Notes under the pieces: model-generated
The model's input: only the letters and a program-made list of their open reading frames with translations
What the model was told of the DNA's origin: nothing
Database searches by the model: none
Made by a program: the position numbers and the translations under genes
From: Fistulifera solaris
Lineage: Eukaryota
NCBI GenBank assembly: GCA_030295235.1
Contig: AP026162.1
Location: 372,001-436,000, forward strand
Reading direction: 5' to 3'
DNA: 64,000 nt
Part shown: in pieces, positions 18,946 through 44,807 of the stretch
Numbering within the stretch: position 1 is the first letter of the stretch
How the letters are laid out: the number at the start of each line of letters is the position of its first letter

Positions 18946-19394
18946 AGAGTAATATATGTGACATTTTGTCCCCTTAGCTCATTCTCTCGAAAAAATGTAC
19001 TTTTTATATCACAGTAAATATTTAGCTGGTACTCGTCTACGTGGACCTACGGCTCGATTACGACATGCGCAGCCAACTGTACTAGCTGTACCTCCGCAAT
19101 CCGCAATCCGCAATAACCGCGTGACGCGCGTGACTCCTTACTCGTCCTCTAATCATTGGTGCCGGTACGAGATCTAAGTGATTTTACAATTAATGCTGAA
19201 AAGTTGCCAGGCTCCTTTGATGATAAACGCGATGATCAAGCACAAAAGAAATTATTCTGCGTGCTTTCACACAGCGACGATGTTGATGTTGATGCGGGTA
19301 CAAATATATTAATAAGAGAATAAACTATTTATCTAGCCTCTCTCAGTCGATTCAATTGTTTGTTTAATTCACAACGGAAGAAATTGAAGCAGTC

Positions 19395-22300
19395 ATGACG
19401 TTGTGGTTCCTCAGCAGCAAAAGCGATTATCAAAATCGAGCTAATCCTCCGCTGAAGGATATTGTCAAATTGCTGTACCCGAACAAATCTGCATCGCAGC
19501 CGCAAAAGAGTGACAATCGCACTCGCTTTTCACACTTATTACTGGAACACGGAGAAAAGTCTATACAAGACTGGGCGGTAGTAGCCAAATCATCCCCAGT
19601 GTCGCTGTCGTCGCTCCAATCTCCTTCCTCCGGTCCTACTCATTCCATACACTGGGCACAATCTACAACAAACGATGCACCGAAAAAGCAGTCGTCTCGT
19701 CGCAAAAAACAACAGGATACATCCAAAGATGCTAGTCCTACCGCTCATATGAATGCGTGGCCCGGGCGTTTGCATCTATGTTCGAGATCACTGGTCTTTG
19801 AACCGAATTCGACTGCTTATCCTATCGTTCGATGTCCCTTCAATAAACTACAAGAAAAACCAGCTGGTCGTGACAAAGTAGTCGAATGGATTGCGAAGAA
19901 GCACATTGCTATTCATTCGGTCATTGCTCCGTTTCAAGCTGTCAATCATGCGGTTCATTTCCGCATCGAATTTTCGCACTCGTCGGTCGACACACTGTTG
20001 CAACACACGGGAGAATTGTACGAAATATGCCAGAAACAAAGTCATCATCAGCTAGCCCAACTGGAGGCGACGTCGCTCAAAACACCACCGGTCATGGATC
20101 CTACAATGCTCCACGTGAGAGAACAACTGGTTACCAGTCCGGTACCGTGTCAGTGGATGACACCCTTGCAAAGCACCGATGGTGTTCTCCTCGTGACCAA
20201 CGAACGATTCACTTTCCAAAGTGCCTCGGGTACGTCGTCGTTTTGGTATCTTGATCAAGTCGCTGCTACAGCCAGGCGCTATTGTGGACTCCGCGATTGT
20301 GCGCTCGAGGTCTACTGGCAGAATGGCACTTCGACATTGTTGGCGTTGGAGCGACGACACGAACGAGAACAAGTTTTGCGACATTTGCATCAAGTTCCTT
20401 GTGTCACCAATCGAGAGTTTGTATTGCAAGTATTGAAAGCGTGGCAAATGAAAGAAATTAGCAATTTTGAATATTTGTTGGCGTTGAATTCGGCAGCGGG
20501 TCGGACGTTTCACGATTTGTCACGGTATCCTGTATTTCCGTGGGTCCTTCGTGACTTTACCAGCAGCAAATTAGACTTGACGAACCCTTCTGTTTATCGT
20601 GATATGACAAAACCCGTCGGTGCATTGAACGAAGAACGACTCGAGTATTTTCGCAATCGCATGTTGGGAATGCACGACATGGGTGAAGACTTTTATATGG
20701 GACTCACTATTCGGCTCCTGGATATGTGCTGTATTATTTGGTGCGGAGCATGCCCGAACACATGCTGTGCTTGCAGAATGGGAAATTTGATGCGCCGGAT
20801 CGAATGTTTCATAGCATTGAGCAGTGTTTTCAATGCGTGCTAACGAACCACGCCGATGTCAAAGAGCTGATCCCTGAATTTTATAGTCAAGACTTTGACT
20901 TTTTGATCAATGCACGAGGGCTCCAACTGGGGGCGACGCAGAATGGTGATCATGTGAATGATGTGCAGCTACCAACTTGGGCGCGGTCGGCTCGAGATTT
21001 CTTACGCAAACATCGCGAAGCTCTCGAGTCCGATATTTGCACGAAAATGCTACCAAAATGGATAGACTTGATCTTCGGGTACAAATCTAGAGGAGAAGCG
21101 GCAAAGGAAGCTTCCAACCTATTCCATCATACTGCGTACCTTGGTCCACACGATCTGGCAGCAATGCAATCGGCGAAAGACCGTTTCCAGGCGGAGCTGC
21201 AGGCAACAGAGTTTGGCATTGTCCCGGACATGCTATTCATCGGCCCTCATCCAGCCCAAATTGACAAGTTCTCGGAAGATTGTGTTTCGCAAGACATTGG
21301 TCGCACTACGAGTCGAGAAGACTCAAGTAGAGAGGCATGGGAGCTCTTAGACCCTCCATCAAGCCACGATGATATACATACTGATGCGGTGCCTGGCTTA
21401 GTTGTAGAATCCCCTGAACAAGAAGAGATCGAATCTACGTTGTCTATGGACCAAAATGATGTGTTTGGTGTTTCGAATGAAAATTTAGAAACACTGGGAT
21501 CTTCGGAACGTGCTCGCGAAGTGCAAGTATCAACACCTACAATGGACGCCTCTAAGGTTCAAAAACATCACCACCCAATCCGACAGCGTCTGACGCAAAC
21601 GGTGCAATTTCAAAGTGGGACATGCAAATTTTAGAAAGGAGGCAATTACACAATGACTCCGTCAGTGGCTGTGCACTCCTGCTAGGAACTCTTGAGAACA
21701 GCAAATCGGTCTTGGTTACGACCTCGTTAGATGGGGGTTTGAAAGTTCACTCAATGCTTCTTGAAACAGCTTCTATGGATCCGAAGGATCTGATCGCCTC
21801 CACGCTTTCGCGATTTACTATGATCAATCGTAAGCAGACGCCATTGTCTTCCGGTTCGTCAAAACTGGTCGAGTATCGCAATCATTCCACGAGAGACCCA
21901 CTAGCAAGTCTTGTCCTGGCTTTAGATGGCACAGGTGGCGCTGTGGCATTTGCTGGAGGTCATGATGATGTGGTCTTAGCCTATGGAATCAATTCAGCCT
22001 GCGCTGTCGCCTCCGTGTACTCACACCGAGACGCCGTCACTGGTCTAGACTTGATAGCACGCTCACCATTTGATTCAGGGAATGCGCTTTGGTTAGAGAA
22101 TGCGACTCATATCCTGATAAGTGGAAGCTGGGATGCCACGGTGAAAGTGTGGTCGGTTGCTGTGTCAGGAGGTGAAACAGTGGCGGTCAATCGAGAACCC
22201 TTGGCCGAGCTGTTCGACGCGGCTTCGTCGATCGTTTGCGTGGCGGCTATTTCCATCCCCACCGGCGGTATTCTTGCAAGCGCAGGTTGTGCGGATGGTA

Positions 22301-22782
22301 GTTTCTGTGTTTGGAATATACATAGCGATGGAGTACAGGTCGTAATTCACAATGAACCTGCAAAGCGGGGATCGGGACCTTGCTCTGTTGTAAAATGGGT
22401 GTCTTCCGGGGGCGCTTTACACATGTTTGCTGCTTTCTCGACCGGCAAAGTGGCAGCCTATTCTTTGGTTGAGGGAGTTCGTTTGGAACGACGTAATGCT
22501 GTTTCAGTGGGAGTTCCTATCCTTTCATTGGCTTACGCCGATGGTTTTATCCTTGTTGGATGCGCTGATGGTGGGCTCCGGCTGATTCCGCTACGACAAG
22601 GTTGTTATTTTGAAGCCAAACCGACCCTATGGCCGGCTGTGAACAACAAATCCTCTCCCGCTATCAGTAACATCAGTCTTTCGTACACCATTCCTGCCAA
22701 CAAAGACGACGAAGTACGGTGCGTATGCTGTACAGGAGGCGCCGACGGTAGCGTCGCATTGTTTGAACTAAGAAAGGCTTAA
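19395..22782 (+). CDS. PH/GRAM-BEACH-WD40 protein (FAN/NSMAF-like); apparent frameshifts near 20692 and 21560
   Basis: WQMKEISNFEYLLALNSAAGRTFHDLSRYPVFPW, (Y)GTHYS, GKFDAPDRMF, DVKELIPEF, WIDLIFGYK, then WD40 motif ISGSWDATVKVW. Confidence 0.92.
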
Positions 22783-25024: not shown

Positions 25025-26174
25025 CTAATCCGAAAGGTCGGCTCGACGATCCGTGACGAACATGTGCCCTGCCGCGTGAGTGATAGCGAACGGCACTTGG
25101 CTGTCCATTAAGACGGTCTGTGGAGTGACGCCGCAGGCATGGAACACAGGAATTTCGTCGGGGAGCACGTTCACGTGGTCGCCCCATTCGGGAGGATTGT
25201 TGAGATCGATTCCGAGAATGTCGGGTCGCCCTATACAAATAGGTCCACCGTGTGCATGCCGGAACTGAGATGTAATCTCAACGTGCCTAGAAATTTGCAT
25301 AGCAGGAATGGGCTTCATGGATACCACAATATTGCCCTTCAATCTCCCCGCTGGTCGACAAGGAAGATTTGTTCGATACATGGGGACATTCTTTCCTTGC
25401 TCAGCGGAACGAAGAGGAATGCCAGCTTTCTGAAGGGCGCCATCGTAAGAGAAACTACATCCAATCAAAAATGCGACAGAGTTTTCAGGCCAGATATCTC
25501 TCACGTCGTTTCGTTCCTCGTGCAACTTTCCGCTTCGATATACTGCGTATCTTCAACAATTGTTAGATTTGCAATAATTCCTTCATAGAAGTAGACAGTT
25601 CCGCTACTTACTTCGGACAATCAGTTCGTAAATCCGCGGTGGGAGCCAGCAAGGTAGGAATAGCCGAACCAACGTCACATACTTCGAGCAGGGGGACAAG
25701 CTTGAGGATTTCTTTGACAAAATAAAAGAAATCAAATGCAATAGGACCTTGTGGCAGCACAACAAGGTTACATTGCAACATTCCGGGGCAGACACCGTTC
25801 GTGGGGCCAGTGAATTCACCCGAACGAACTCTTTGGCGGAACGTTCGTGTCACTAGAATATCGGGATGGCTAAATGTTGGGGCTCCGTACCAATTCAATG
25901 TTGCTCCTTTCCTCTCCAGTGAATAAGGTCGTTCCGGCCTTTCCCACCTTTCGCATATATTCAAAAGCTTTGCGTCGTCTTTCGTTTGGGTTTCAGGCGG
26001 ACGGAGTGTCAAATTGGGCATCACTGCTTGTAACTTCTGGAATTCGCTTTCAGTGAAGGTGTTAGCTGGACTGCCCTCTTGAGGCTGAAGCGAAGGAAGC
26101 ACATTGCGAAGAATATCAGTTGTGACGGTCGTTTCTGTGAGGTCGCGGCAAGGATCGTCACCTTGAGCGTTCAT
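25025..26174 (-). CDS. DUF1445 / D-glutamate cyclase-like putative hydro-lyase; intron 25551-25611; apparent frameshift near 25728
   Basis: GPTNGVCPGMLQCNLVVLP, (FCQRNP)..PLLEV, DLRTDCP, AFLIGCSFSYD, NVPMYRTN, HGGPI, HACGVTPQ, THAAGHMFVTD. Confidence 0.88.
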
Positions 26175-26610
26175 GTTGCTTACGGCTCGATTTTCTACGA
26201 GCCGTGAATTGAAGAATGCAAGATTTTTTTTAAAAAAAAGTACAGAAATAGCGTTTGTTTAGTCGAGGTGTCGTTATCAACTATCAACGTCAATAAAGGA
26301 ATGCATGCCTGCCTGGAATGGACCTGGTAAGCAAAACAGAAAATGGACCTCTTCGATTTGACAATACGCCAAAGAGTACCTGCTTTTCACAAAAACTCGA
26401 AATAGATCATCATCGTCGCGAAGAATTCAATTCTCGGGGAATTCTCTTGCGCTCATACGCCAAAGCAACAAAATACAAAAGTAGGTCATCGTGCATGTAA
26501 TTTGAGAATAAAAGTGCCATGAATTATGCATTGTATGGACCGCGTCGATGAATTCTATAGTATGCCTTCATAAAGAACAATTGCCCCTACGCTATCATTA
26601 TGCAAATGAG

Positions 26611-29249
26611 CTATGCCGGCTTTTCGCTCGGTCGATGCCCTGCATTAGAATAAAGAACGCGGTAAAGTTCTTTGGCTAGGGTCCTCGGCTCGCACGGGAA
26701 CGGTTTAAACGTAAATACATCCGCACCCGCTTCAAGGAACTCACTCTCCTTATCATTAGCCGAAAGCCCACATATCCGACAATGGACGCCCTTCTTTCTC
26801 AATGCCACTACTGTTTCAGTTCCTAGAAGTTGCTTCTCAACGCTCGCCATGTACATATCCATGAAAATCAAGTCAAAGGATTCCGTCTCTACTAAACGAA
26901 GAGCAGTTTCACCGTTCGATGCTTCTCGAAAAGACCAGCCAGGAGCCACTGTTTTGGCCGTCCTGATAAACAGTTTCCTTAACACTGGGTCATCGTCAAC
27001 AAACAAAACAAATAACTGCTCAGGAAGTTTACCGCAAAGACCACCTTCTGGAGTGATATTGAAACGTTCTTCCAGCTGATGCGCGATCGTCGTGGGGCTT
27101 ATTGGCGGCTGACGGAGACAGACTACAAATCTGGCACCAGGATGGTCTTTCTATCCGCTGGTAAAGGACTCGTCTAACTTGATCTCTCCTCCCATCAAAT
27201 TGACCAAGCTCTTGCACAAAAACAATCCGATTCCCTAAAAACTCAAATCCAGATACGTATTAGATATAATAGAAAGCAGTTGCTTGAGACGAATGAGCAC
27301 CTACCGTTCCCTGGCTGAGACTGTCAAGGCTCTCCTGAAATTTGTTGAAAAGTGAACCCCGCTTTTCTGGTGGAATTCCAGGACCGGAATCTTCGATCGA
27401 CAGCTCCACCATACCCTCAGCTACCTGGGCGCGAAGACGCACGTACCCGCTTTCTACAAACTTCAAACTATTTCTCCCGAGATTCAAGACAACCTGCTTC
27501 AATCGCAGCCGGTCTGTCACAACCAAGAGCTGCCGAGGACAGTCTAAGTCAACAAGAAAATTGGCGTTTCGTTGATTCAACATCGAATGCACAGGCTCCA
27601 AAACATCAAGAAATAAGTCGGTAGGTTCCATGGTGACTTTCAGTTGCTGGGTTGCCGCTCGGTGCATATCGAGCATATTTCGCAAGAGGTCGTTCACGAA
27701 CTTCATGGCATTCTCAATAATAGCTATGTCTTGTCGAGTCGTGGAGCACGACTCCTCGGTCGCTAGAGGTTCGTTTTCAAAGACTGCTGCCTTGACAAAG
27801 CTACATGCAGTCATTGCAGCGGCTACGGGATTGCGTACCTCATGACCTAAAAAATCATTGAGTTCGCGCTCGGCTCTTGTAGCCTCGTGGGCATTCTTCA
27901 AAATCATCTTCGCTTTTTCCACATCAGCAACTGCCTTGAGCTTATTTCGCTCCTCAACGCGTCGAGTCCGCGCACAAATGAAGAGAGCTAAACACAAACT
28001 GGCAAGGAAAATAATGATGCCACCGACACATACAAACAGCACCCCCGGCTTGTAAGTGTCATCGATCGTCAGAACTGATACAATCCATCGCCTATCAGCG
28101 GCCCTGATGATTCGCTCCATATACAAAACTTGTGTCCTCTGTAGCTCGGTCAAACTTACTTCCGAAAGAGGAGTCAACAATGGTCCGCTTTCATTATCAG
28201 AAGTCGTCACCGACGCCGCTCCTAGAAAAACCGGAGCTTCTTTGAAATCAGATGTATCAAAGATGTATACAGCAGAGTTTTGCTGTTGGTTCTCGGTGGA
28301 CCGTTTGATCAGATCAGGAATACGAATAACAATAGATGCTAGGTCTTTCGGCCAAACACCTGGGTCATCCGAGATCCGAACACCGGGGTGCATAAGTATA
28401 ACACCATAAGAATCTTCCTCTGTTTCTATCACTAATTTCAGCCGATCTGTTAACGCCTCTCTTCCTTCCCTCGATACATTTTTTTGACAGCCTTTTGACG
28501 TGGTCCCCATGAATTATAATCTAGACCAAGGGCAGCCTCGTTCTTTTCGACCGGTTCCACATAGTCTGTGACATATTATGTGTGAGTGCTGCAGTAGAAT
28601 GCGGATGCAAAACCCTTATGAAAACACGTACGAATAGGAAAATAATAACTGGTGTTCAGACGCGGTTCAACGATTGTCGAGTTTTCGTAATTAAAGCCAA
28701 TAAATCCTCCGTAGTTCAGTTTTGGATAGTGCTCTTCGTAAACGCCCTAGCCTCGGCCTCGGCCTCGTCTCGCTCATTGTGTGAAATATTCGGATGGAAC
28801 TGAGCTGCCTGGAAATCCAATCCATTGAAAACCAAATACTCATACATTTCGCGAAAATCAACACGATTGAATTTCCTGTTTCTGCATTTTCCGTGAATCC
28901 GCAGTGCGGCGGCGACATATTCCTCCCACGCACCCTCAATCTTGTTAATCAAATCCAGAGCGCTACGAGCAAACTGGTGCTCTTTATCTCTCTTGGCTGA
29001 ACTGATTCCCATTGCCATAAACGCAGCTGCCGCGCCACTTCCCAGAATGGTTATCATTAGCGCCGAAAGTCCTGTTTTCTTTTTGTGCATGGTGCTTGCA
29101 AGAGCGCCGTCGTTCCTGATAATTGAACACGATTCCAAGTCAACTTTTCGTCCCGTTTTCGATCGCTTTTGGATATGGCTTGTATCGGAAACGCTCGACA
29201 TTGCTCTACCTGCTTTCGCTTTTAGTAAATGTATGCGTTGGTTCGGCAC
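26611..29249 (-). pseudogene. CHASE hybrid histidine kinase copy 1 (HK1); introns 28566-28631 and 27235-27304; frameshifts near 28740 and 28460; in-frame TAG at 27151-27153
   Basis: TM segment, CHASE motif FPIHYVEP..NEAALGLD, H-box HEVRNP, LGRNSLKF, DSGPGI, GTGIGL, REC with VDDD/IFMD/KPF. TAG replaces the Tyr codon of the paralogs. Confidence 0.7.
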
Positions 29250-30038
29250 TTCTTTACTAAATTGATCGAGAATAGCATCCGACAGTAACGAAGTGAGAGG
29301 GCGTCAAGGCCGAAGTGCGGTCGAACACATCGGACGTGTACTGCGACGACGTTTCCAATCTACACCTCACAATCTTCACTCCTAGATGGTTGTTATGAAG
29401 ATCGGAGTACAGTACTTGTGACGGAGTATCTTCATTCGTCATCCCTCGCTGCTCCGCGGCTTCGGCAGGTTCACCTTTTGGGGTCACTTGTCTGTCACGA
29501 ACCAGGATCCTCGTGTTTCTATAATACCGGTACCGTATTTCACTCAATACTGAGTAAGAAAGATCCAATATTTGGTCGTGTATGAAAATCCGTCTCATTT
29601 GTTGGTGATGGAAATGGCCTTTTCATTCAATCCAGTTCAATCAAGGTTCGTTTTTCAAAAAAGGGTTGTTTTCCCCCTGCATGTCCCTTGCCAAACTAAT
29701 AAACCCCCTGGCGAGACGACTCCTCAAGAGTGGTTCTTTGAAGTCGAATGCCGTAATTTTCTGCCACAATCCACGCAAATAAACTAACTTAAATGTTCAT
29801 CCGACTGTCAGTTCTACATTCGGGTGGTATATGTAGTCATCCGCCAGCTCCTGGGCGGGATTCTCCCGCTCAATTCGTAGAACATCATCGATTTGGGACA
29901 AACGGGCACCTAGGTCGACGGCTATGTTGTCTAATAATATCCACTAGAGAGCAACGCCCATGTACACGTATGCCGGTGAACAGCGTAAATCCGACTCCCA
30001 ATTTGTAGAGCTGGAAAAATGAAAAGCAGCTCTACAAA

Positions 30039-32608
30039 TCACACATCTCTATTTTCTTCCCATGGCCTGCTCCCTAAGTTGTAATTGAGGATTCTGCACA
30101 GTTCTCGAGTAACTATCCTTACATCACAGGGGAAAGGCTTAATCGTAAATACGTCCGCACCCGCCTCAAGGAACTCGCTCTCCTTATCATTAGCCGAAAG
30201 TCCACATATCCGACAAAGGACTCCCTTCTTTCTCAATGCCACTACTGTTTCAGTTCCTAAAAGTTGCTTATCAACACTCGCCATGTACATGTCCATGAAA
30301 ATCAAGTCAAAGGATTCCATCTCTACTAAACGAAGAGCAGTTTCACCGTTCGATGCTTCTCGGAATGACCAGTTCGGTGCCACCGTTTTCACTGTCCTTG
30401 AAAATAGCTTTCTGATTATTGGGTCGTCGTCAACAAACAAAACCGAGAGTTGCTCTGGAAGTTCATTAGAATAAGAATGTGGATTTTGACCAAAGACTTC
30501 GTTCGACTGTTCAGTGATCATTTTGGGGTTAAATGGAGGTTGACGGAGGCTAACTACAAACCTGGTTCCAGGCTGGTCGTTGTATCCACTGGCGAACGCT
30601 TCGTCCAGACTTATCTCTCCTCCCATAAGCTCAACCAAATTCTTACATAAGAACAATCCCAATCCCTTAAACAAAGAAGTAAAGGGTAAGAGGGCTGTGA
30701 GTCAACTTGACAGATAAATTCTATTTATTACTTACCGTACCCTGGTTAAGACTGTCCAAGCTTTCTTGATACTTCTTGAAAAGCGATTGGTGCTTTTCTA
30801 GCGGAATTCCCGGACCAGAATCCTCAATCGATAGTTCCACCATGCCGTCCACTACCTGGGCGCAAAGACGCACGTACCCGCTTTCTACAAACTTCAAGCT
30901 ATTTCTCCCAAGATTCAAAACAACCTGCTTCAATCGCAGACGGTCCGTCGTGACAAAAAGATGATTTGGACAGTCTACTTCGACTCGAAAGTTGGCATTT
31001 CGTTGATTTAGCATCGAGTGGACCGGCTCAAGAACATCGTGAAGCAAGTCAGTAGGCTCCATTGTAACTTTTAACTGCTTGTTGGCTGCCCGATGCATAT
31101 CTAGCATATTCCGTAATAGATCGTTGACAAAAGTCAACGAATTTTCTATTATTGCTACGTCCTGCCGAATTGTAGAGCGAGCCTCATGGGTTGTCAGCGG
31201 TTCCTTTTCATTGACAGCCGCCTTCACAAAGCTACATGCAGCCATTGCCGCAGCAACGGGATTGCGTACCTCGTGGCTCAAAAAATCGTTGAGTTCCCGC
31301 TCGACTTTAGTAGCTTTGCGAGCATTTTTTAAGATAAGGTTCGCTCTCTCCGCGTCTACTTCCCCTTTCACCTCGCTGAGGCGCGCTAGCCGCTGCGTAT
31401 GCGTATGAATCCATAGAGCCAAACATAAACTAGCAAGGAATATAATGGTCCCACCAATCCATACAAACATAGTATCAGGTTGAAACGTCTCATCGACAGA
31501 AAGAACTGATACTGTCCAGACTTTATTCGCCGCCGTGATATTCCTCTCGAGATACAATCTGCTTGTCGTGCGTATCATATCTAAAGTAATATCTGGAAGA
31601 GACTTGAAAGTACTATCAGTATTGTTGCCATTGGGCGTCATCTTGGCCGCTCCGAGAAAAAGCGGTTCCCCACTAGAATCGGAGTAATCAAAAATGAAAA
31701 CAGCAAAACGCCGCTGCTGTCCCACCATTGACCGCTTGATCAAATCAGGAATACGAATCGCAATGGAGGCTATATCTTTGGGCCAAGCAACACGCGCGGT
31801 GGAAACCTCAATACCAGGGTGCATTAGTACCACCCCATAGGCCTTCTCTGATGTTTCCATGACCAAATGCAGGCGATCAGTTAGCGAGGGCTGTCCTTCT
31901 GTCATGCAAAATTGAACTGCTCTCTGTCTAACTCCCGATGCGTGGTAATCCAGACCAATAGCGGGTTCATTGCCAATTACTGGTTCCATGTAATCTGACG
32001 TGAAGCAACGTGATACTGTTAGTGTCGAATAAAGATTTGTTATCAAGAGTAAAAAACACTGACCGATACTTACGAACGGGAAAGTAAAAGCTAGCATTGA
32101 GCCTTGGCTCTGTAGCTGTCGAGTTTTCGAAATTAAACCCAATAAAGCCTTGATAGTCGACGCTCGGATAATTTTCTTCATAAAACACCCTTGCTTCCGC
32201 TTCCGCCTCTGCTCTTTCGTTGTGTGTCAAATTTGGAGCGAACTGGACTGCTTGAAAGTCGAGCCCGGAGGAAACTAAATACTCGTACATTTCATGAAAT
32301 TCGACTCGACCGAACTTCCTGTTCCGGAACCTTCCATGAATCCACGTTGCGGCATTGACATAGTCCTTCCAGGCGTGCTGGATCTTATTCACTAAATTCT
32401 GGGAGCTGCGGATAAACTGATCTTCCTGGTATTTTTTGGCTGAACTGATTCCCATGAACAAGAATGCCGCTGCTGTGGCGCTTCCCAGAAGAATTACTAA
32501 CAACATCAAAAGTGCGGTAGTTTTGTGTTTGATAGTTGCGAGGGATGAGCTCTGGCTGCTGCTACTGGTGAGCGAGCATTTTTCGATTTCATTGCCTTGC
32601 AGCTTCAT
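30039..32608 (-). CDS. CHASE hybrid histidine kinase copy 2 (HK2), frame intact from 32608; introns 31995-32073 and 30666-30735
   Basis: TM-CHASE (FPVHYMEPVIGNEPAIGLD)-TM-HisKA (SHEVRNP)-HATPase (RNSLKF, DSGPGI, GTGLGL)-REC (VDDD, IFMD, KPF). Confidence 0.92.
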
Positions 32609-33473
32609 CGGTTTCTTTTCGGTGTGAATGTATGTGTCGAATCAGATCGATCAGTTCTCACTGGGATTGTGCATAAACGAAGTTTTCATCAAAGTTCGAC
32701 AGCGTTTTTTGCTCATGGCTCATGGATACATTGTAGATCATTGCGACGTTAAGCTCGTCTGAACGAGGAATTTGGCGGGCCATACAAACGTGACCAAAGC
32801 TGTTTCACACAAACAAGGTTACGTCGCCGCACCGAAAGTGCAACATCCTCCATCACTTTTCTCTTTATTACGAAAATTGAAACCCTTTCCTTGCTCCTTG
32901 CGCTCCATGTTTACGACGATACACATGCATGACGTGAGCAATCTACCTCGTAGCTTTATTCACGTTATTCCAACAGAAATTGGGTCCCGATGTCTTTGAC
33001 AACAACCCATAACATTTTCTTCTCTCTCTCTCTCTCTAAGACTGCCCTACTTGCAGTCCCATGTAAATGGAATTATTCTAGTCAACACAAGATAATTCTG
33101 GGCAACATTACAACTCAAATACAACAATACAACACGCATCGCACGTCGCGCCTTATTTGTACCGCCAGTACCAGGTACCAGTACCCTGGTAATGCTCTCA
33201 CCGAGACGCACTCCCAAGAACGTTCTTGCGCACTCGTCACTCGTCCCCTTTCCCCTTACACATTTCGGTACCGCTACGAATGCATTTTTGCATTTTGCAC
33301 CATAGTACTTGTAAAGTCTATAGAGCTAAGGCTATTAGTTGCTTCTCTAGCTGCTACTGACAAGGACGCAAAATTATCCGCAATGAAGTAAAAATAATAA
33401 TGCTTTTTTAGAAAACTAAGGTTTGACTAATCTCAATGCGCAAATTCGTCTGACGTTTGTAATGGGTGATGTC

Positions 33474-35982
33474 TTAGGAGTAAAGAACACGGCAAAGTTC
33501 TTGCGTTAGCGCCTTCGACTCACACGGAAACGGTTTGAATGTGAACACATCTGCACCCGCTTCAAGAAATTCGCCTTCCTTATCGTTTGCCGATAGCCCG
33601 CATATCCGGCAACTAATTCCTTTCCTCCTCATAGCCTTTATTGCTTCTGTCCCTAAAAGTTGCTTTTCGACACTAGCCATGTACATATCCATAAAAATTA
33701 AGTCAAAGTGCTCCTTCTCCACTAAATTCAATGCAGTTTCACCGTTAGATGCTTCTCGAAAACTCCAGCCAGGTGCCACCGCTTTTGCCGTCCTGGTAAA
33801 GAGCTTCCGTAAAATTGGATCATCATCGACAAATAACACCGAGATTTTCTTTGGAAGCTTACTACTGATATCAGATCGTAGACTTGGATAGATAACTTCG
33901 TTTGGTGGAACTGCGACTGCCTCGGTGTTCAATGGAGGCTGACGAAGTCTAATAACAAACCTGGTACCAGGCTGATCGTTGTATCCACTGGCGAACGATT
34001 CGTCCAAACTTATCTCTCCTCCCATCAGCTCAACCAGAGTCTTACACAAGAACAATCCCATTCCCTTGAGTAAAAAAAACACAATGTTAGACGATAATAC
34101 ATCCACCCCAAAAGACAACCCTCACTTATACGTACGGTTCCCTGGCAAAGCATGTCAAGGCTCTCCTGAAATTTTTGAAAGAGCGTATATCGCTTTACCG
34201 GTGGAATACCTGGACCGGAATCCTCAACCGATATCTCCACCAGACCGTCAATTACCTGGGCGCGAAGACGCACGAACCCGCTTTCTACAAATTTCAAGCT
34301 ATTTCGTCCCAGATTCAAAACAATCTGCTTTAACCGAAGGCGGTCAGTCATGACGAAAAGATGACGCGGACATTCAATGTCGACTTTATATGTAGCATTT
34401 CGCTGATTTATCATCGAGTGTACCGGCTCGAGAACATCGTGAAGCAAGTCAGTGGGTTCGAGTGCGACTTTTAATTGCTTATTAGCCGCCCGATGCATAT
34501 CCAGCATATTTCTCAAAAGGTCGTTGACGAACTTCAAAGAATTCTCTATAATAGCTACGTCATGCTGGACAGTCGAGCGAGCTTCATGGCTTGAAAGCGG
34601 GTCTCTATCATGGACAGCTGCCTTCACAAAACTACACGCAGCAGTCGCGGCGGAAACGGTGTTACGCACCTCGTGACTGAGAAAGTCGTTGAGTTCCCGC
34701 TCGATCCTCGTAGCTTCGTGGGCATTTTTTAATATCAATTTCGCTTTCTCTGAATCTGCTTCCGCCTTCATCCTGTTTACCTGCTCTACTTTTTTTTGTG
34801 TGCGTGTACACCCAAAGAGCTAAACATAGACTTGCCAGAAAGATAATGGTGCCACAAATTGAGACAAACAACACATGTGGCTTGAACGTGTTATCAACCG
34901 AAAGAATTGATACAGTCCAAACTTTATTCGCAGCCTTGATATTTTGCTCGAAATACAATCTCCGCGTTGTTCGGATCTCATTCAAATTTGCCTCTGCAAG
35001 GACTGTGATCATAGAACCGATGTTTTTGCCGTGGGGAGTCGCCTTGGCCCCTCCGAGAAAAAGAGGCACTCCACTCGAATCGGAGTGATCGAAAAGGAAA
35101 ACAGCCGAACTACGCTGCTGGTTTTCGCTCGACCGTTTGATCAGATCAGGGATACGAATAACAATAGAAGCCAAATCTTTGGGCCATACACCCAGTTCAG
35201 TGGAGAGTTCTATGCCAGGATGCATGAGCACAACTCCATAAGATACCTCATCTGTCTCTTGTACAAGTCGCAGGCGATCCGTCAGAGCTGGCTTTCCTTC
35301 TCTAGTGCAAAATAAGACAGTTCTCTGGCGGGTCCCGGAAGCGTGGTAATCTAGATCAATAGCAGCCTCGTTGCCTATGACTGGTTCCATATAATCTGCG
35401 AAGAAACAACACTGTGTTAAAAACACAATACTAAATCCTTCTTCGAAAAATGGCCCACACTTACGAATAGGAAAGTAGAAACTGGCGTTGAGCCGTGGCT
35501 CAATGGTTGTCGAGTTTTCGAAATTGAAGCCAACAAAACCCCGGTAGTCTATTGTCGGGTAATTTTCTTCATAGTACGCCCTGGCCTCAACCTCCCGCCC
35601 CGCGGCGCTCTTCGTTTGTAATGTTCGGAATGAACTGAGCGGCTTGAAAATCGAGCCCGGAAGATACAACATATTCATACATTTCACGAAAATCAATACG
35701 GCTAAAGTTTCGGTGACTGCATCTTCCGTGAATCCACGCGGCTGCGGTAAGATAGTCTTCCCAAACGTGCTCAATTTTGTTGACGAGGTCTAGTGAACTG
35801 CGTGTAAATTGATTTTCTTGATCGTTCCTAGCCGCAGTGATCCCCATCGACAAGAACGCCACTGCAGTTCCAGTTCCCAGAATGACGATCATAAAAACTA
35901 AAAGTAGAGTGTTCTTGTGTCTGGCACTGGGAGCGGTTGCAGCTACGTCGTTGCTTGCCAGCGAACAATTTTCTAGGTCCAT
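33474..35982 (-). CDS. CHASE hybrid histidine kinase copy 3 (HK3); introns 35396-35464 and 34065-34135; apparent frameshifts near 35595 and 34790
   Basis: Same domain order and intron positions as HK2; H-box reads HEVRNT. Confidence 0.88.
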
Positions 35983-36782
35983 CTCTGTAGACGCACTTGC
36001 ATGTCCTTCATCAAGCTTTTTCTTTACTAGGCTTTGAAGCCCCCATTGTCTTTGTTTCAGCTCTAAGAGGAATGAAACTTGTGAATAATCTTTTCTTCTT
36101 GATTCAGCCGCGAGGATCCCTCGAGAAACCTATCTGGCCAAGAAGAACAAACCAAAATATCGAGTATTCATGTATCGGAAATGCGAAACATGGGCGCGAT
36201 TACTCCGACGATCCATTGATAAGCCCATCATGTCTGCTATGTTCCGCATTATAAGAAGCAGGATCAACATTACTCCGACAATGAATAAAAACAACAAAAC
36301 GGAGTAAAAGCGTTCTTATCCGGCGCTGTTATTCTGCTCTCCGCGTTGCCGGATAGGGTTCACTTTTCTTTTCTTCAAAAATAAATCAGAATTTCCGTCC
36401 GTCTCAAAATATCCTGGAATGTATCTGTAGTAGTAATAAGCGTAGTTTATCAACTTATCCACGACTGTATTTCAGTCATGAAAGTATAAGCATTTGAGCG
36501 ACATTCGTTCGTTTCGCAAATACCTTGAGCTACATTGGTCATTGTTGCAATGAAATCGACTTTAGCAGCGATTCCGCAACACTTAATTCTAGTTTAGCAT
36601 GGAGAGCCTCACGAAACATCTCGGTCATGAGTCATGAATGAATACTTGAGAACATATCACCATTAGACTGCACCCCCAGATTTTCTTGGTACTTGAACGC
36701 CGCACTTCCAAATTATTTGGCCACGAGAGAACATAGTTTTGTTGATACAAGTACATCACCTTGACGAAAGAAAACAGGAAAG

Positions 36783-36851
36783 GACGTTAAAATTCTGCCT
36801 CTCAGTACAAGTTTCTACGTAGAGCCTACGGCAAGGCAGAATTTTAACGTC
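36783..36851. repeat. Perfect 18-bp inverted repeat with 33-bp spacer (hairpin)
   Basis: GACGTTAAAATTCTGCCT at 36783-36800 and AGGCAGAATTTTAACGTC at 36834-36851. Confidence 0.9.
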
Positions 36852-37310
36852 GATCCCTTATATCCATTGGACAAACCATCCTACAATTACGCTCAAGCTC
36901 AACGCCCCGTACCCATTTGTTTTCAATTTTTAGAGTCTACAGTCAGCTAACTATCGTTCACTGTAAAATTTTTTCAGGCGTATTTTCCTGCTATTCTATT
37001 TGTACTTTCTTCAGGCCCTCTTGCAGGTGTGAGAGGACTCATGGTTCAGTGAAACATAACTCGCCGCAAGTTTTTATTGTGACGAAGTTTATTTAGCCTG
37101 TATTATTGTCCATTGAATACAGATACAAGCAGCCACTTTGTCCATTAGCAACGCACTCTGGAAAATCAATCGTTGCTCGGCCGAGACAGGCAGCGATCGA
37201 CAATGTCGGTTCCAGAAGACCAAGACGAAAGTAGAGAACGACAAATCTGCAGCTACAACGATTCGAACTCATCTGTATGTTGTGAGCAATAAAGGCCTTT
37301 TTGAAACAGA

Positions 37311-39937
37311 TTACTCCAGAATTTCTCCTTTTGACCGATAATTCGAATTTGAATACAGAACCCGACAAAGTTCTTGGGTCAGGGCCCTCGACTCGCAAGG
37401 AAACGGTTTGAATGTGAATACATCCGCACCCGCTTCAAGAAACTCACTCTCTTTATCGTTTGCTGACAGACCGCATATTCGGCAATCGACTCCCTTCTTC
37501 CTTAAAGCCACCACAGTCTCAGTCCCTAAAAGTTGCTTCTCGACATTGGCCATATACATATCCATAAAAATCAAGTCAAAGTGCTCCGTCTCCACTAAAT
37601 TCAATGCAGTTTCACCATTTGATGCCTCTCGAAATGACCAGCCAGGCGCTACTGTTTTCGCCGTCCTGGTAAATAGTTTCCGTAAAATTGGATCATCGTC
37701 GACAAACAAAACAGAAATTTTCTCTGGGAGTTCACTGGTGAGTTCGGGGTGTGGGCTTCGATCAGAGGCTTCTTCGGGCTGATAAGCGATCGTCTCAGGA
37801 TTTAATGGAGGCTGACGGAGATTTACGACAAATCTGGTACCCGGATGATCTTTGTATCCACTGGTGAACGATTCGTCGAGACTTATCTCTCCTCCCATAA
37901 GCTCGATAAGATTTTTGCAAAGAAACAAGCCAATCCCCTAAAATAAAGCATCGCGACATTAGAAACGAACATTGTACCGCAATCACTTCAGATATGCTGT
38001 ACGTACCGTTCCTTGACTAAGACTATCGAGGCTCTCCTGAAACTTGTTGAAAAGTAAACCCTGCTTTTCCGGTGGAATCCCAGGACCAGAATCCTCGATC
38101 GATAGTTCCACCATGCCGTCCACTACCTGGGCGCAAAGACGCACGTACCCGCTTTCTACAAACTTCAAGCTATTTCTCCCAAGATTCAAAACAACCTGCT
38201 TCAATCGCAGACGGTCCGTCGTGACAAAAGATGATTTGGACAGTCTACTTCGACTCGAAAGTTGGCATTTCGTTGATTTAGCATCGAGTAGACCGGCTCA
38301 AGAACATCGTGAAGCAAGTCAGTAGGCTCCATTGTAACTTTTAACTGCTTGTTGGCTGCCCGATGCATATCTAGCATATTCCGCAACAGATCGTTGACGA
38401 ACTTCAAAGCATTTTCAATAATCACCACATCTTGCCGAATTGTCGAACGAGCCTCTTGAGTTGTCAGCGGTTCCTTTTCATTGACAGCCGCCTTCACAAA
38501 ACTACATGCAGCCATTGCCGCGGCGACAGGATTGCGTACCTCGTGAGCTAAGAAGTCATTGAGTTCACGCTCGGCTCTGGTAGCCTCATGGGCATTTTCC
38601 AAAATCAGCTTCGCTTTTTCTGCGTCTGCATCTGCCTTCATTCTGTTGAGTTGCTCAACTCGGCGCGTATGCGTAAATATCCAAAGAGCCAAACACAAAC
38701 TGGCAAGGAATACAATGGTGCCCCCATCGATACAAACAGCACATTTGGCTTAAAAGTGTCATCGATAGAAAGAACCGATACAGTCCACACTTTGTTGGCA
38801 GCCCTGATATTCTCCTCGAAGTACAGCTTGCTTGTTTTTTGTATCTCGGTCAGCGTTGTTTCGGGAAGGGGCGTAAGCAACGCACCACTGTGGTCGCCAT
38901 AAGGTTTCACCTCAGCACCACCGAGGAAAAGCGGCTGGCCACCAGAGTCGGACCTATCGAAGATGTAAACAGCAGAGCTCTGCTGCTGGTTCTCAGTGGA
39001 CCGTCGGATCAGATCAGGAATACGAATCACAATTGACGCTAGGTCTTTCGGCCAAGCATCTGGGTCAGTTGAAAGCCTAATCCCGGGATGCATAAGTATA
39101 ACACCATAAGATATGTCCTCTGTTTCTTGTACAAGACGCAGACGATCCGTTAAAGCCGGTTCTCCTGTTTCTATACATGTCAAAACTGTTTTTTGCCGTA
39201 CTCCCGATGCGTGATAGTCTAGACCGATAGCGGCTTCATTGCTGAGTACTGGTTCCATGTAGTCTGTGAAATATGAACGAGTTGTTAACAATACATCAAC
39301 ACTGTGGTGCGCAGCATAATTTTGCACTTACGAATAGGAAAGTAAAAGCTGGCGTTAAGCCGTGGCTCAAGGCTTGTTGAGTTTTCGAAGTTAAAGCCAA
39401 CAAACCCTCGGTAGTCGACGCTCGGATAATATTCCTCGTAGTAAGCCCTCGCTTCAGCTTCAGCTTCATCTCGTTCATCGTGTGTTATATTAGGATCGAA
39501 TTGTGCTGCTTGAAAGTCGAGTCCGGATGCAACTAAATATTCGTACATTTGTCGAAAATCGACACGATCGAATTTCCTGTTTCTGCACCTTCCATGAATC
39601 CATGATGCAGCAGTGACATAATCCTCCCACGCGCCTTCAATTTTTGTGATTAAATCGAGTGCGCTACGAGCGAACTGATCTTGTTGATCCTCTATTGCCG
39701 ACCCGATCCCAACGGCTAAGAACGCCGCTGCAGTACCACTGCCTAAAATTACTACCATTAACACCAGCAGCAAGGTCGTCCTTTGCTTGAAAGCTGAGAT
39801 GGTCGCCGAGCCTTCGTTGCTGTCGAGCGAGCCTTTTCAAGATCGATATCAGATGAATTCCTTGATTGTTCATGTGACAGTATCTTTTGGTTGCTAGTGG
39901 ACATCTCGACCATGGCATCTCCTCCGTTGCTAACCAT
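37311..39937 (-). CDS. CHASE hybrid histidine kinase copy 4 (HK4); introns 39264-39331 and 37938-38006; apparent frameshifts near 39836, 38725 and 38228
   Basis: FPIHYMEPVLSNEAAIGLD, AHEVRNP, RNSLKF, DSGPGI, GTGIGL, REC with VDDD/IFMD/KPF. Confidence 0.9.
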
Positions 39938-40604
39938 GATGTTATTTGAGTGAACGTTTGACTTAACAACGCACGTTTGCGAGAATAGGATTAAACTTTG
40001 TTTTATACGTACTCAGAGGATCGATTAGGTTCGAAATACGAAGGACGGCGAACGATGATGATTCGAAACGCGTGTCATTAATTTTTCCGCCACTTCTCGT
40101 TTGGCTCCGAGCTCCGATGCGGCGGAGAGCGGAGAGCCGGGCAAGGGGGCCGTTTTGTTTTTGTTTGTGGTTTGCGGACGGCGGACCGGACGTCGGACAG
40201 CCATGGTCATGGGTCATTTTCCTTTCAGACACTATTCTTACCTGGTATTTGTTAAGTCTTGAGCATTCAGCTTTTTTGTTCTTCTGGTTTCGTTTCTTCT
40301 TTCTTCGTTCTTTTGTACAATATTGTATCGCAGGTTGCAGGTTGCATAATTCTTACTTACTACGTACAAAATGACGACACTTATTTCCAAACTTCAAGCT
40401 ACGGATTGAAAAGTCACGCGGGAATTCGTTGCCTCTGCGACGGAAACAAGTTTCCTACTACTTTCGGGAAACGAGCATTCGCAAAACGCATGAATGCAAA
40501 ACGCAAGACGCGATAGGGGTCTAATGATTGAAAATAAAAGTGAACAAGTACGAACAAAATACTTGCAATGCGAATGAATGGCTTTCTTGATAACTTACTA
40601 CCAA

Positions 40605-44423: not shown

Positions 44424-44807
44424 CCTTTATAGTCAGTCTTGATTAGGAAGTAAGTAGAATAATGATCATAATGTTAGAATGATAATCTCATTGGATGTAA
44501 AGACGGGATACGAGCAATGCGAAATGGATCACACCGGTATACGACTGTCGATTAGAAAGTACAGCTACAGTTACTGTTGTCTTACTGGCTTTCGATGCGA
44601 TTGTTATTGAGAGGTGCGCTCTCGTCTTATTTGTTGTCATTGCGTTGGTTGATCATCTTTATCGCGGTGTAGATGATCAACTTCTAATAGCGAAAGCGTT
44701 ACCTTTCGAGAATCGATAGGGTTGACGTACTTCTTGCGTAACTAGACGGCGAGCGAAGTCAAATCCGTAATCGTTGTATTTTGCGGGCGTCAGCGAACGT
44801 CGACACC

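Follow-up and report, generated by a model that had tools for sequence, protein, structure and literature searches.

A tandem array of CHASE-domain histidine kinases in the diatom Fistulifera solaris: a likely lineage-specific expansion with a predicted bacterial-type pocket

What do four kinases that resemble cytokinin receptors and stand side by side in a diatom genome sense, and does each of them sense something different? The question is raised by a 64,000-nucleotide stretch of the Fistulifera solaris genome (contig AP026162.1 of assembly GCA_030295235.1, positions 372,001 to 436,000; the window in what follows), for which an original prediction had proposed a locally expanded receptor family with diverging sensor domains on conserved signalling cores. 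The array is largely known and its discovery value is low, since its genes were previously reported as the first diatom cytokinin-receptor homologues. The sharpened question is what CHASE kinases outside plants sense. We consider it likely that the array represents a lineage-specific expansion of a phosphorelay receptor of pennate diatoms, which has a pocket of the bacterial type, a ligand that is probably no cytokinin, a first copy that has perhaps shifted, and a history of subgenome losses.

Gene models and their published counterparts

Window positions 26611-39937 contain four co-oriented paralogs on the minus strand, g1 to g4, running from the g1 stop at 26611 to the ATG of g4 at 39937, exactly as predicted. 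The two introns at identical positions in each copy are likewise recovered by the exon models: intron 1 is in phase 1 and splits the His codon of FP(I/V)HY, and intron 2 is in phase 0 between QGT and G. Gene g1, coding for a TM-CHASE-TM-HisKA-HATPase protein (26611..29201; exons 29201-28632, 28565-27305, and 27234-26611), has GT-AG introns of 66 nt (28566..28631) and 70 nt (27235..27304), and its receiver-coding sequence lies beyond an internal stop. The other three code for hybrid CHASE kinases: the intact g2 (30039..32608; exons 32608-32074, 31994-30736, and 30665-30039) with introns of 79 nt (31995..32073) and 70 nt (30666..30735), g3 (33474..36046; exons 36046-35465, 35395-34136, and 34064-33474) with an intron 1 of 69 nt (35396..35464) and intron 2 at 34065..34135, and g4 (37311..39937; exons 39937-39332, 39263-38007, and 37937-37311) with introns of 68 nt (39264..39331) and 69 nt (37938..38006). 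Spliced transcripts, the existence of which had been set as a check on the prediction, were found: seven of the eight introns are joined in contigs of the runs X3 and X4, which come from one study, are RNA-like according to an automated guess, and show poly(A)-like ends besides the splice joints. For intron 1 of g3 no joint is among those listed for X3 and X4; the spliced form of this gene matches the public protein GAX12249.1.

Frameshifts occur in three of the four window copies (g1, g3, and g4), as might be expected if the copies were pseudogenes or an assembly artefact of collapsed or duplicated haplotypes. However, the indels fall within single-base runs, and those at 28468, 28479, and 28739 (g1), 34790, 35594, and 36017 (g3), and 38720 and 39833 (g4) are corrected in the short-read contigs covering them; the shift near 38228 in g4 is not among the contig rows listed, and protein P0001 reads through that place. 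Furthermore, the copies are only about 70% identical in DNA, one 5.6-kb X1 contig (31201-36799) spans g2 and g3, and corrected g3 equals GAX12249.1 in 809 of 809 residues. Most frameshifts in the array are therefore assembly errors, and the pseudogene or artefact explanation, ruled out for g2, g3, and g4, retains a practically negligible probability for the array as a whole. The frameshift-free g2 codes for 806 amino acids counted from the chosen first Met, g3 for 809 after read-supported indel correction, and g4 for 830.

By sequence, g4 is GAX12250.1/FisN_1Hh181 (FsolaHK21), with GAX21141.1 (FisN_1Lh181) as its homeolog, and the corrected g3 is FsolaHK23. Accession order and architecture indicate that g2 is probably GAX12248.1/FsolaHK24 and g1 probably GAX12247.1/FsolaHK26, the latter being listed as CHASE-H-A with no R. 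In its accessible text, the survey of Kabbara et al. (2019; PMC6324907) catalogues GAX12247, GAX12248, GAX12249, and GAX12250 as CHASE kinases within FsolaHK21-HK26 and terms the Fistulifera CHASE kinases cytokinin receptor homologues, the first in diatoms. That same text does not deal with the arrangement of the genes in tandem, the unequal gene content of the subgenomes, the reason why one receiver is missing, gene conversion, or pocket residues. New here are a homeologous contig with only g1 (intact) and g4, gene-conversion tracts in the kinase cores, and an HPt gene.

Domain architecture, the truncated g1 and subgenome history

The proposed TM-CHASE-TM-HK-REC layout, as in AHK4 and DhkA, is supported. 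Each gene model has two hydrophobic helices, and Pfam CHASE (PF03924; cut-off 25 bits) scores 85 bits in g4 (P0001), 63 bits in g3 (P0261), and 50 bits on an exon piece of g2, whereas the g1 piece reaches 17 bits, under the cut-off, because a frameshift splits it. Together with the fold matches to AHK4 and PcrK discussed below, these scores agree with the CHASE/dCache identity that had been assigned to the inter-TM region. The predicted sensor motif FP(I/V)HY(M/V)EP..NE.A.(G/D)LD is present after splicing, although three residues and not two lead from EP to NE. HATPase_c and Response_reg exceed their Pfam cut-offs. HisKA stays below its own (23.6 vs 26.9 bits in g4, with no HisKA entry for g3), although all six Fistulifera copies have the H-box His as well as the H-, N-, G1-, and G2-box and the receiver DDD/D/S/K motifs, with g3 carrying the H-box variant HEVRNT (Pro to Thr). 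The search for an HPt partner, which had also been suggested, identified a gene with the motif HVVKGAA on contigs C1 and C2, elsewhere on the array's own contig.

The architecture predicted for each copy, TM-sensor-TM-HisKA-HATPase-REC, holds for g2, g3, and g4, which have an in-frame C-terminal receiver with phospho-Asp, and fails for g1 of the window, whose receiver is out of reach behind a premature TAG (27151..27153, minus strand). This codon, near the end of HATPase_c, is Tyr in the five other copies including the homeolog g1L, and corresponds to Tyr650 (HATPase_c 553-664 in g4). Contigs of X2, X3, and X4 cover the site with no other letters; the TAG is genuine and not an assembly error. 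Because three runs uphold it, g1 yields a 637-aa protein that lacks the receiver and also the last HATPase_c strand.

Instead of being a fresh pseudogene, g1 of the window (g1H) might be a functional receiver-less modulator, i.e., a decoy or heterodimer partner, or might be expressed by readthrough of the TAG. Its transcript is spliced and runs on to position 26501, where X3 shows a poly(A)-like loose end, the stop falls in the last exon and recurs in a wetland metagenome of a second study, and beyond the stop the receiver frame stays open, with 93% identity to g1L. However, a recent origin of the stop and conversion with g2 (windows of 0.95 identity) account for this open frame, loss of the last HATPase_c strand should destabilise the catalytic domain, and an intact homeolog exists in g1L, so that we regard a functional g1H as very unlikely.

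The homeologous contig retains only g1 (intact, g1L) and g4; g2 has no homeolog in the assembly. The intergenic spacer on C2 matches window positions 29322-29536 and then 36307-37399, as expected from deletion of g2 and g3. In the sensor tree, which contains no plant sequence, the six sensors of Fistulifera group together in a single clade (100/100) with the topology ((g2,g3),((g1H,g1L),(g4H,g4L))), in line with the local, lineage-specific expansion originally claimed. The array would be older than the separation of the two subgenomes. One subgenome would later have lost g2 and g3, and on the other g1 would have been inactivated by a nonsense change with its homeolog kept intact. The locus offers a small, clear case of gene loss biased towards one subgenome in an allodiploid, oil-producing diatom.

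Sensor divergence, predicted pocket and ligand

The claim that diverging sensors are carried on conserved cores describes the paralog identities well (sensors 59-72%, kinase cores 72-93%) and needs qualification in that part of the core similarity is due to gene conversion and the mapped residues of the sensor pocket hardly vary, apart from neighbouring changes in g1. A conversion tract joins g2 (approximately 30900..31190, minus strand) to g4 (approximately 38170-38460); it comprises stretches of 93 and 190 nt without a mismatch at alignment codons 473-568, from the end of DHp to the start of the catalytic domain, and such a run was reached in 0 of 500 permutations. The dN/dS ratios per domain, a comparison that had been called for, are below 1 in every folded domain and show purifying selection. 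Between homeologs, DHp, CA, and REC have ratios of 0.05-0.14, and the sensor has 0.08 in g4 and 0.31, about four times as much, in g1. As the g1 sensor evolves faster in both homeologs (branches 0.094 and 0.077), this is not simply decay of g1H.

The g4 sensor model (pLDDT 93.5) comes closest to AHK4 (3t4j; Z 21.6, rmsd 3.4 over 244 residues), followed by PcrK (6k62; Z 21.4, rmsd 3.5 over 242), with the next structure at Z 15; the model thus predicts a double-Cache (tandem PDC) fold as in these two proteins. Pocket residues were placed through a sequence alignment in two steps, with an identity of about 25%, and not by residue-level structural superposition; for Asp262 of AHK4 a gapless stretch leads from P0001 over P0124 to AHK4 and PcrK, V248, Y250, and L251 fall in an alignment gap without reliable placement, and AHK4 numbering was checked against Table 2 of PMC3491891. 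At the Asp262 position all six Fistulifera copies have Arg, as have 172 of 229 rows of the family alignment, none of which has Asp. Among the other AHK4 pocket residues (M256, I266, T278, F281, R282, L283, L284, V292, and T294), three of nine are identical in g4H (T278, R282, and L283), while T294 is replaced by Met, F281 by Leu, and M256 by Tyr. The predicted pocket is accordingly of the bacterial CHASE type; Arg also occupies this position in PcrK and in the unrelated bacterial-like CHASE protein P0124 and hence is not diagnostic. The invariant Asp of the LD motif is distinct from the adenine-binding Asp262, whose position holds Arg.

Could each paralog nevertheless be tuned to its own chemical cue, making the array a diversifying repertoire? 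The gap in identity between sensors and cores and the fast g1 sensor would suit this idea, as would residues W144, E160, and I/T170 of g1H and g1L, found in 0/231, 0/233, and 0-2/233 family rows, and M170 and H167 of g2. However, conversion inflates the similarity of the cores, and loss of half of the array on one subgenome together with the truncation of g1H fits redundancy. Because the membrane-proximal PDC is the least conserved part and the distal PDC more conserved, dN/dS stays below 1 throughout, and eight of ten mapped contact positions are invariant wherever the copies align, divergent ligands are not indicated, except possibly for g1, and a repertoire seems rather doubtful. Most copies probably share a ligand or recognise related ones, with g1 as the candidate for a shifted pocket.

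As to the nature of this ligand, binding in the manner of plant cytokinin receptors is not to be expected from the alignment because of the Arg at the Asp262 position, and a cytokinin seems less likely than another ligand. Arg at this position is in itself compatible with cytokinin, as PcrK has it and is reported to bind isopentenyladenine (iP). The array might then consist of true receptors for N6-substituted adenines that bind iP in the way of PcrK and sense the diatom's own tRNA-derived or bacterial cytokinins. Besides the Arg shared with this reported iP binder, the two solved structures nearest in fold are also the only cytokinin-linked ones with a CHASE domain that were found, g4 retains the equivalents of T278, R282, and L283, and the accessible text of Kabbara et al. 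(PMC6324907) names the genes cytokinin receptor homologues. Against this stand the absence of Asp262 from all 229 rows and the changes of T294 and F281, three residues that matter for AHK4 binding (PMC3491891). Moreover, according to reviews a CHASE domain by itself does not define a cytokinin receptor, DhkA senses a peptide, and SAR candidates were without functional study as of a 2020 review. We therefore judge cytokinin perception by the array unlikely.

On the preferred reading of a lineage-specific phosphorelay receptor, and by analogy with hybrid kinases generally, each protein would be a dimer in the plasma membrane or ER (plant cytokinin receptors reside mostly in the ER; PMC3491891) that binds a small molecule in the outer, membrane-distal PDC pocket. 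Binding would shift the balance of His autophosphorylation, and the signal would be relayed from His to the Asp of the own receiver, to HPt, and to a downstream response regulator. For ligand screening, g4 may serve as the family-typical and g1L as the divergent receptor, with a pocket that is nearly the same across paralogs and common to cyclase/phosphodiesterase receptors.

Relation to known systems

A family search gave 118 matches; the ten that carry an organism name are all from diatoms and no plant-named match is among the 118, and neither phmmer nor the A2 profile search of PDB sequences matched AHK4. The CHASE-kinase family would thus be widespread in pennate diatoms, with a tandem expansion in the Fistulifera lineage. 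Its occurrence in ten or more diatom genera or samples conflicts with the statement, in the accessible part of a preprint (bioRxiv 10.1101/2024.02.19.579948), that among stramenopiles CHASE kinases occur only in brown algae.

In other diatoms the same CHASE subfamily is also fused to cyclase/phosphodiesterase outputs; five output state changes map onto the sensor tree, and a single clade of these fusions is rejected (AU p 3e-16). A more speculative proposal, which we hold to be quite unlikely, takes the diatom CHASE subfamily as a transferable receptor module that perceives a signal peculiar to diatoms and other than a cytokinin, for instance a bacterial metabolite or a cue for mating or density. 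The module would have changed repeatedly from one kind of output to the other, histidine kinase or cyclase/phosphodiesterase, with g1 as a new-ligand copy (W144, E160) and the spliced, truncated g1H as a dominant modulator. Because the pocket Arg is conserved, the ligand of such a module might be anionic. If true, this proposal would connect the cGMP receptors with which pennate diatoms respond to pheromone with phosphorelay signalling. According to the accessible text of PMC8027222, the GC/PDE genes of Seminavis, taken as a class, are responsive to sex pheromone, but the identifiers of the subfamily's Seminavis examples, Sro198_g083980 and Sro994_g229050, were not found in that text or in its nine text supplements.

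Arabidopsis AHK4/CRE1 (PDB 3t4j) shares with the array the TM-CHASE-TM-HK-REC layout, the double-Cache sensor, and the three pocket equivalents retained in g4, whereas its sensor is only 14% identical and differs at Asp262, T294, F281, and M256. PcrK of Xanthomonas campestris (PDB 6k62) resembles the array in sensor fold, in the Arg at the Asp262 position, and in a motif of the EP...N..LGLD type; in contrast, it is 14% identical, is reported to bind iP, resides in the bacterial periplasm, carries two receivers, and signals to a c-di-GMP phosphodiesterase. Dictyostelium DhkA has the CHASE-H-A-R layout as well, and its ligand is the peptide SDF-2. Diatom GC/PDE receptors such as those of Seminavis, with Pfam CHASE, Guanylate_cyc, and PDEase_I domains, belong to the same CHASE subfamily as the array (53% identity for P0062), although their output is a cyclase/phosphodiesterase and not a phosphorelay.

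Organization and integrity of the array

The array (window positions 26611-39937) consists of four minus-strand paralogs of a CHASE hybrid histidine kinase, i.e., g1 (26611-29201), g2 (30039-32608), g3 (33474-36046), and g4 (37311-39937). Gene models confirm the co-oriented copies of the original prediction, each with two short GT-AG introns at positions identical among copies, one within the His codon of FP(I/V)HY and the other at QGT|G. Pfam models of CHASE, HisKA, HATPase_c, and Response_reg are found in the expected order on 15 exon pieces of the four genes. With the full public proteins of g4 and g3, CHASE reaches 85 and 63 bits, respectively (cut-off 25), and HATPase_c and Response_reg score above their cut-offs, with HisKA below its own. 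Two hydrophobic helices flank a sensor of ~297 residues in each model, which together with the Pfam scores bears out the predicted CHASE sensor between transmembrane (TM) segments. The sensors carry N-glycosylation sequons, and every kinase and receiver motif is found in the models. The array is therefore real and was well described except for one missing receiver: the order TM-sensor-TM-HisKA-HATPase-REC, predicted for each copy, holds for g2, g3, and g4, but in g1 the receiver is lost behind a TAG codon (27151-27153).

Contigs of four public sequencing runs (X1-X4) were compared with window positions 26000-40500. Spliced transcripts, on which the prediction had been made to depend, are found in RNA-like contigs: X3 and X4, two runs of a single study assigned to RNA by the tool's guess only (no run is on record as RNA), contain joints for 7 of 8 introns, and X3 has poly(A)-like ends, one at 26501 and one at 36969. 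X1 and X2 contain no splice joints and behave as DNA; X1 also covers intergenic DNA and is therefore treated as such. Three copies are frameshifted in the window sequence, and indels at 28468, 28479, 28739, 34790, 35594, 36017, 38720, and 39833 are corrected in contigs among the matches listed. Corrected g3 equals GAX12249.1 (809/809 residues), and g4 matches GAX12250.1 across every break, one of which, near 38228, is absent among the contig corrections listed. With the indels corrected in contigs and g3 identical to its public protein, the view of g2-g4 as pseudogenes or assembly duplications was rejected. Elsewhere in the window, BEACH and GCP domains are divided over overlapping frames (19368-22782 and 44742-47754), suggesting frequent indel errors or short introns across this assembly.

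The TAG of g1 is covered without difference by contigs of X2, X3, and X4 and is a genuine lesion. The g1 product therefore has 637 residues and ends before the last catalytic-domain strand and the receiver; it is highly improbable that this truncated protein has a functional role. One X3 contig (28304-30252) extends from spliced g1 exon 2 through the intervening spacer and reaches the 3' part of g2, which may reflect read-through or overlapping UTRs, although one contig does not prove a single transcript.

Between g3 and g4 lies a MITE-like 76-bp element with terminal inverted repeats (36777-36852), for which there are 397 candidates genome-wide, the 40 scored ones matching at 94-100%; contig depth there runs into the thousands, and the element is skipped by one X2 contig. 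Downstream of the array, the next gene is D-glutamate cyclase-like (PF07286; 25025-26258), and other neighbors are a BEACH/WD40 gene, Es2, MAD1, a gamma-tubulin complex component, and a GST-HIT fusion. No connection of these genes with the array was apparent.

Fold and pocket of the sensor

As modeled by AlphaFold2 (pLDDT 93.5), the g4 sensor resembles the plant cytokinin receptor AHK4 (3t4j; Z 21.6, rmsd 3.4, 244 residues) and the Xanthomonas CHASE kinase PcrK (6k62; Z 21.4, rmsd 3.5, 242 residues), and other dCache domains score well under both (Z <= 15). The inter-TM region is thus a CHASE/dCache domain, as the original prediction had it. Sequence searches of the PDB did not reach AHK4 or PcrK with the g4 sensor (two chance matches), gave no match with the sensor-rich family profile A2, and returned only kinase and receiver chains with the full-length profile A1, among 60 of 212 matches listed; generic CHASE clusters only were obtained from the ESM Atlas. 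The pocket was therefore mapped through the bacterial-like protein P0124, which aligns gaplessly to g4, AHK4, and PcrK over the stretch between the 'LD' Asp and the L283-L284 strand, AHK4 numbering being verified with Table 2 of PMC3491891. For AHK4 V248, Y250, and L251, placement by a constant offset was abandoned since an alignment gap lies there.

In this alignment Asp262, the adenine-binding residue of AHK4, lies seven residues downstream of the invariant 'LD' Asp. At the Asp262 position all six Fistulifera copies carry Arg, as do 172 of 229 family rows, with Asp in none of the 229. Among ten mapped contact positions, g4 shares T278, R282, and L283 with AHK4. PcrK likewise aligns with Arg at the Asp262 position, although it is reported, in the available text, to bind isopentenyladenine (PMC7072313); the Arg therefore argues against the plant binding mode only and not against cytokinin binding as such. 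That the array receptors sense cytokinins nevertheless seems unlikely.

Whether each paralog senses a ligand of its own is doubtful, if somewhat less so. Eight of the ten contact positions are invariant among copies (one being a gap in g1L, the g1 homeolog), and only the equivalents of R282 and V292 vary. Near the pocket, both g1 homeologs are distinctive in W144 (0/231 rows) and E160 (0/233 rows).

Divergence within the array and on the homeologous contig

The original prediction of diverging sensors on conserved cores holds, with qualifications. Among the window paralogs, amino acid identity is 59-72% in the sensor versus 72-93% in DHp, 76-90% in the catalytic domain (CA), and 79-90% in the receiver (REC). 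However, identity is lowest in the membrane-proximal PDC (Cache half of the sensor; 46-66%), whereas the ligand-binding distal PDC reaches 60-78%, and gene conversion accounts for some of the similarity of the cores. Stretches of 93 and 190 nt are identical between g2H and g4H (H, window copy), and stretches of 62 and 83 nt between g1L and g4L (L, homeolog), each reached in 0 of 500 permutations; in the receiver, two windows of 25 codons show 95% identity between g1H and g2H. Saturation of dS makes the dN/dS values of paralogs unreliable. Between homeologs, dN/dS computed per domain, as had been proposed, is 0.05-0.14 in DHp, CA, and REC, and in the sensor 0.08 for g4 and 0.31 for g1. A value of 3.67 for the first TM helix of g1 was dismissed, as it covers 24 codons only.

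Contig C2 is collinear with the window (G000:C1:372001-436000) at 85-89% identity, as expected of a homeolog, and the g4 pair bears the public names FisN_1Hh181 and FisN_1Lh181. Only g1 and g4 have orthologs on C2 (86% and 89% identity); where g1 has its stop, g1L encodes Tyr, and the receiver frame of g1L is open. A DNA search of the whole assembly with g2 found no g2 homeolog. The C2 spacer matches window positions 29322-29536 and then 36307-37399, and in the sensor tree the branching of g2 and g3 precedes the H/L split; the simplest history is therefore that C2 lost both genes. Directly downstream of g1L lies an LTR retrotransposon (G000:C2, ~379090-384464), of Ty1/copia type by motif reading only, with LTRs of 514 bp that are 99.2% identical. 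It is absent from the matching place in the window.

Family, phosphorelay, and known receptors

A search with the g4 sensor region gives 118 matches, 115 of them at 30-100% identity and three bacterial-like at 25-28%; all ten organism-named matches are diatoms. A representative library yields 1791 matches at E <= 0.001. In a tree of 46 sensors chosen from 259 proteins (P0013, P0070, and P0023 being left out by the gap filter, and P0022 being absent as well), the six Fistulifera sensors form one clade (100/100), so the predicted local expansion is lineage-specific among sampled sensors. Six rows carry a cyclase and a phosphodiesterase in place of the kinase and require five state changes; a single clade for them is rejected (p-AU 2.6e-16), with several long branches and the group set by domain content after the tree was seen. 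One of them, Seminavis P0062, a predicted gene model, is nested in a kinase clade. The two other CHASE matches in the F. solaris genome are receptors of this type with a weak CHASE, on C25 (L039:1954-4995) and C32 (L040:4685-8129). The Seminavis gene ids of such receptors are absent from the text and supplements of PMC8027222. A2-based searches gave 4 pattern matches in prokaryotic genomes and 37 in viral contigs, none confirmed; the search patterns are diatom-specific, and these negatives therefore say little on family origin. A viral origin has reportedly been proposed for brown algae.

The HPt partner for which a search had been suggested is found as a two-exon stand-alone gene at C1:687402 and C2:658473 (24.8 and 23.7 bits with the second exon alone, cut-off 24.6). 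Receiver matches in the genome number 42. Candidate downstream receivers are one that follows an LRR region (L047:1730-4046, C20) and short receiver-bearing frames (L041:2809-3534 and L042:2758-3657, C5), one of which ends, by eye, in a helix-turn-helix-like stretch. By analogy with established systems, the array most likely feeds a standard multistep phosphorelay: a ligand in the distal PDC would signal via the second TM helix to His autophosphorylation, and the phosphoryl group would pass to the receiver Asp, HPt, and a response regulator. The predicted receptors would be membrane-bound; plant cytokinin receptors reside mainly in the ER membrane. Hybrid histidine kinases form a further tandem pair on two homeologous contigs (G000:C15:57379-61540 and C16:39278-43767), which possibly represents the ethylene-receptor homologs with consecutive accessions in the table of Kabbara et al.

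A literature search, with most subscription papers outside it, found no published account of how the genes are arranged in tandem, of the pocket residue, or of the sensor swap. In the available text of a brown-algal genomics preprint (bioRxiv 10.1101/2024.02.19.579948), CHASE kinases are apparently absent from other stramenopiles, a statement contradicted by the present data. The available text of Kabbara et al. (2019; PMC6324907) presents F. solaris CHASE kinases as the first cytokinin-receptor homologs in SAR, its Table S1 containing GAX12247-GAX12250, GAX21141, and GAX21142, with GAX12247 devoid of a receiver; g3 and g4 are tied to these entries by sequence, g1 and g2 by accession order only. 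As far as their available text goes, PMC6944256, PMC7700396, and PMC10338860 repeat this report, with no function tested so far, and caution against taking CHASE as a sign of cytokinin binding. The array thus consists of already catalogued genes of a known receptor kind, to which the present analysis adds modest yet usable details.
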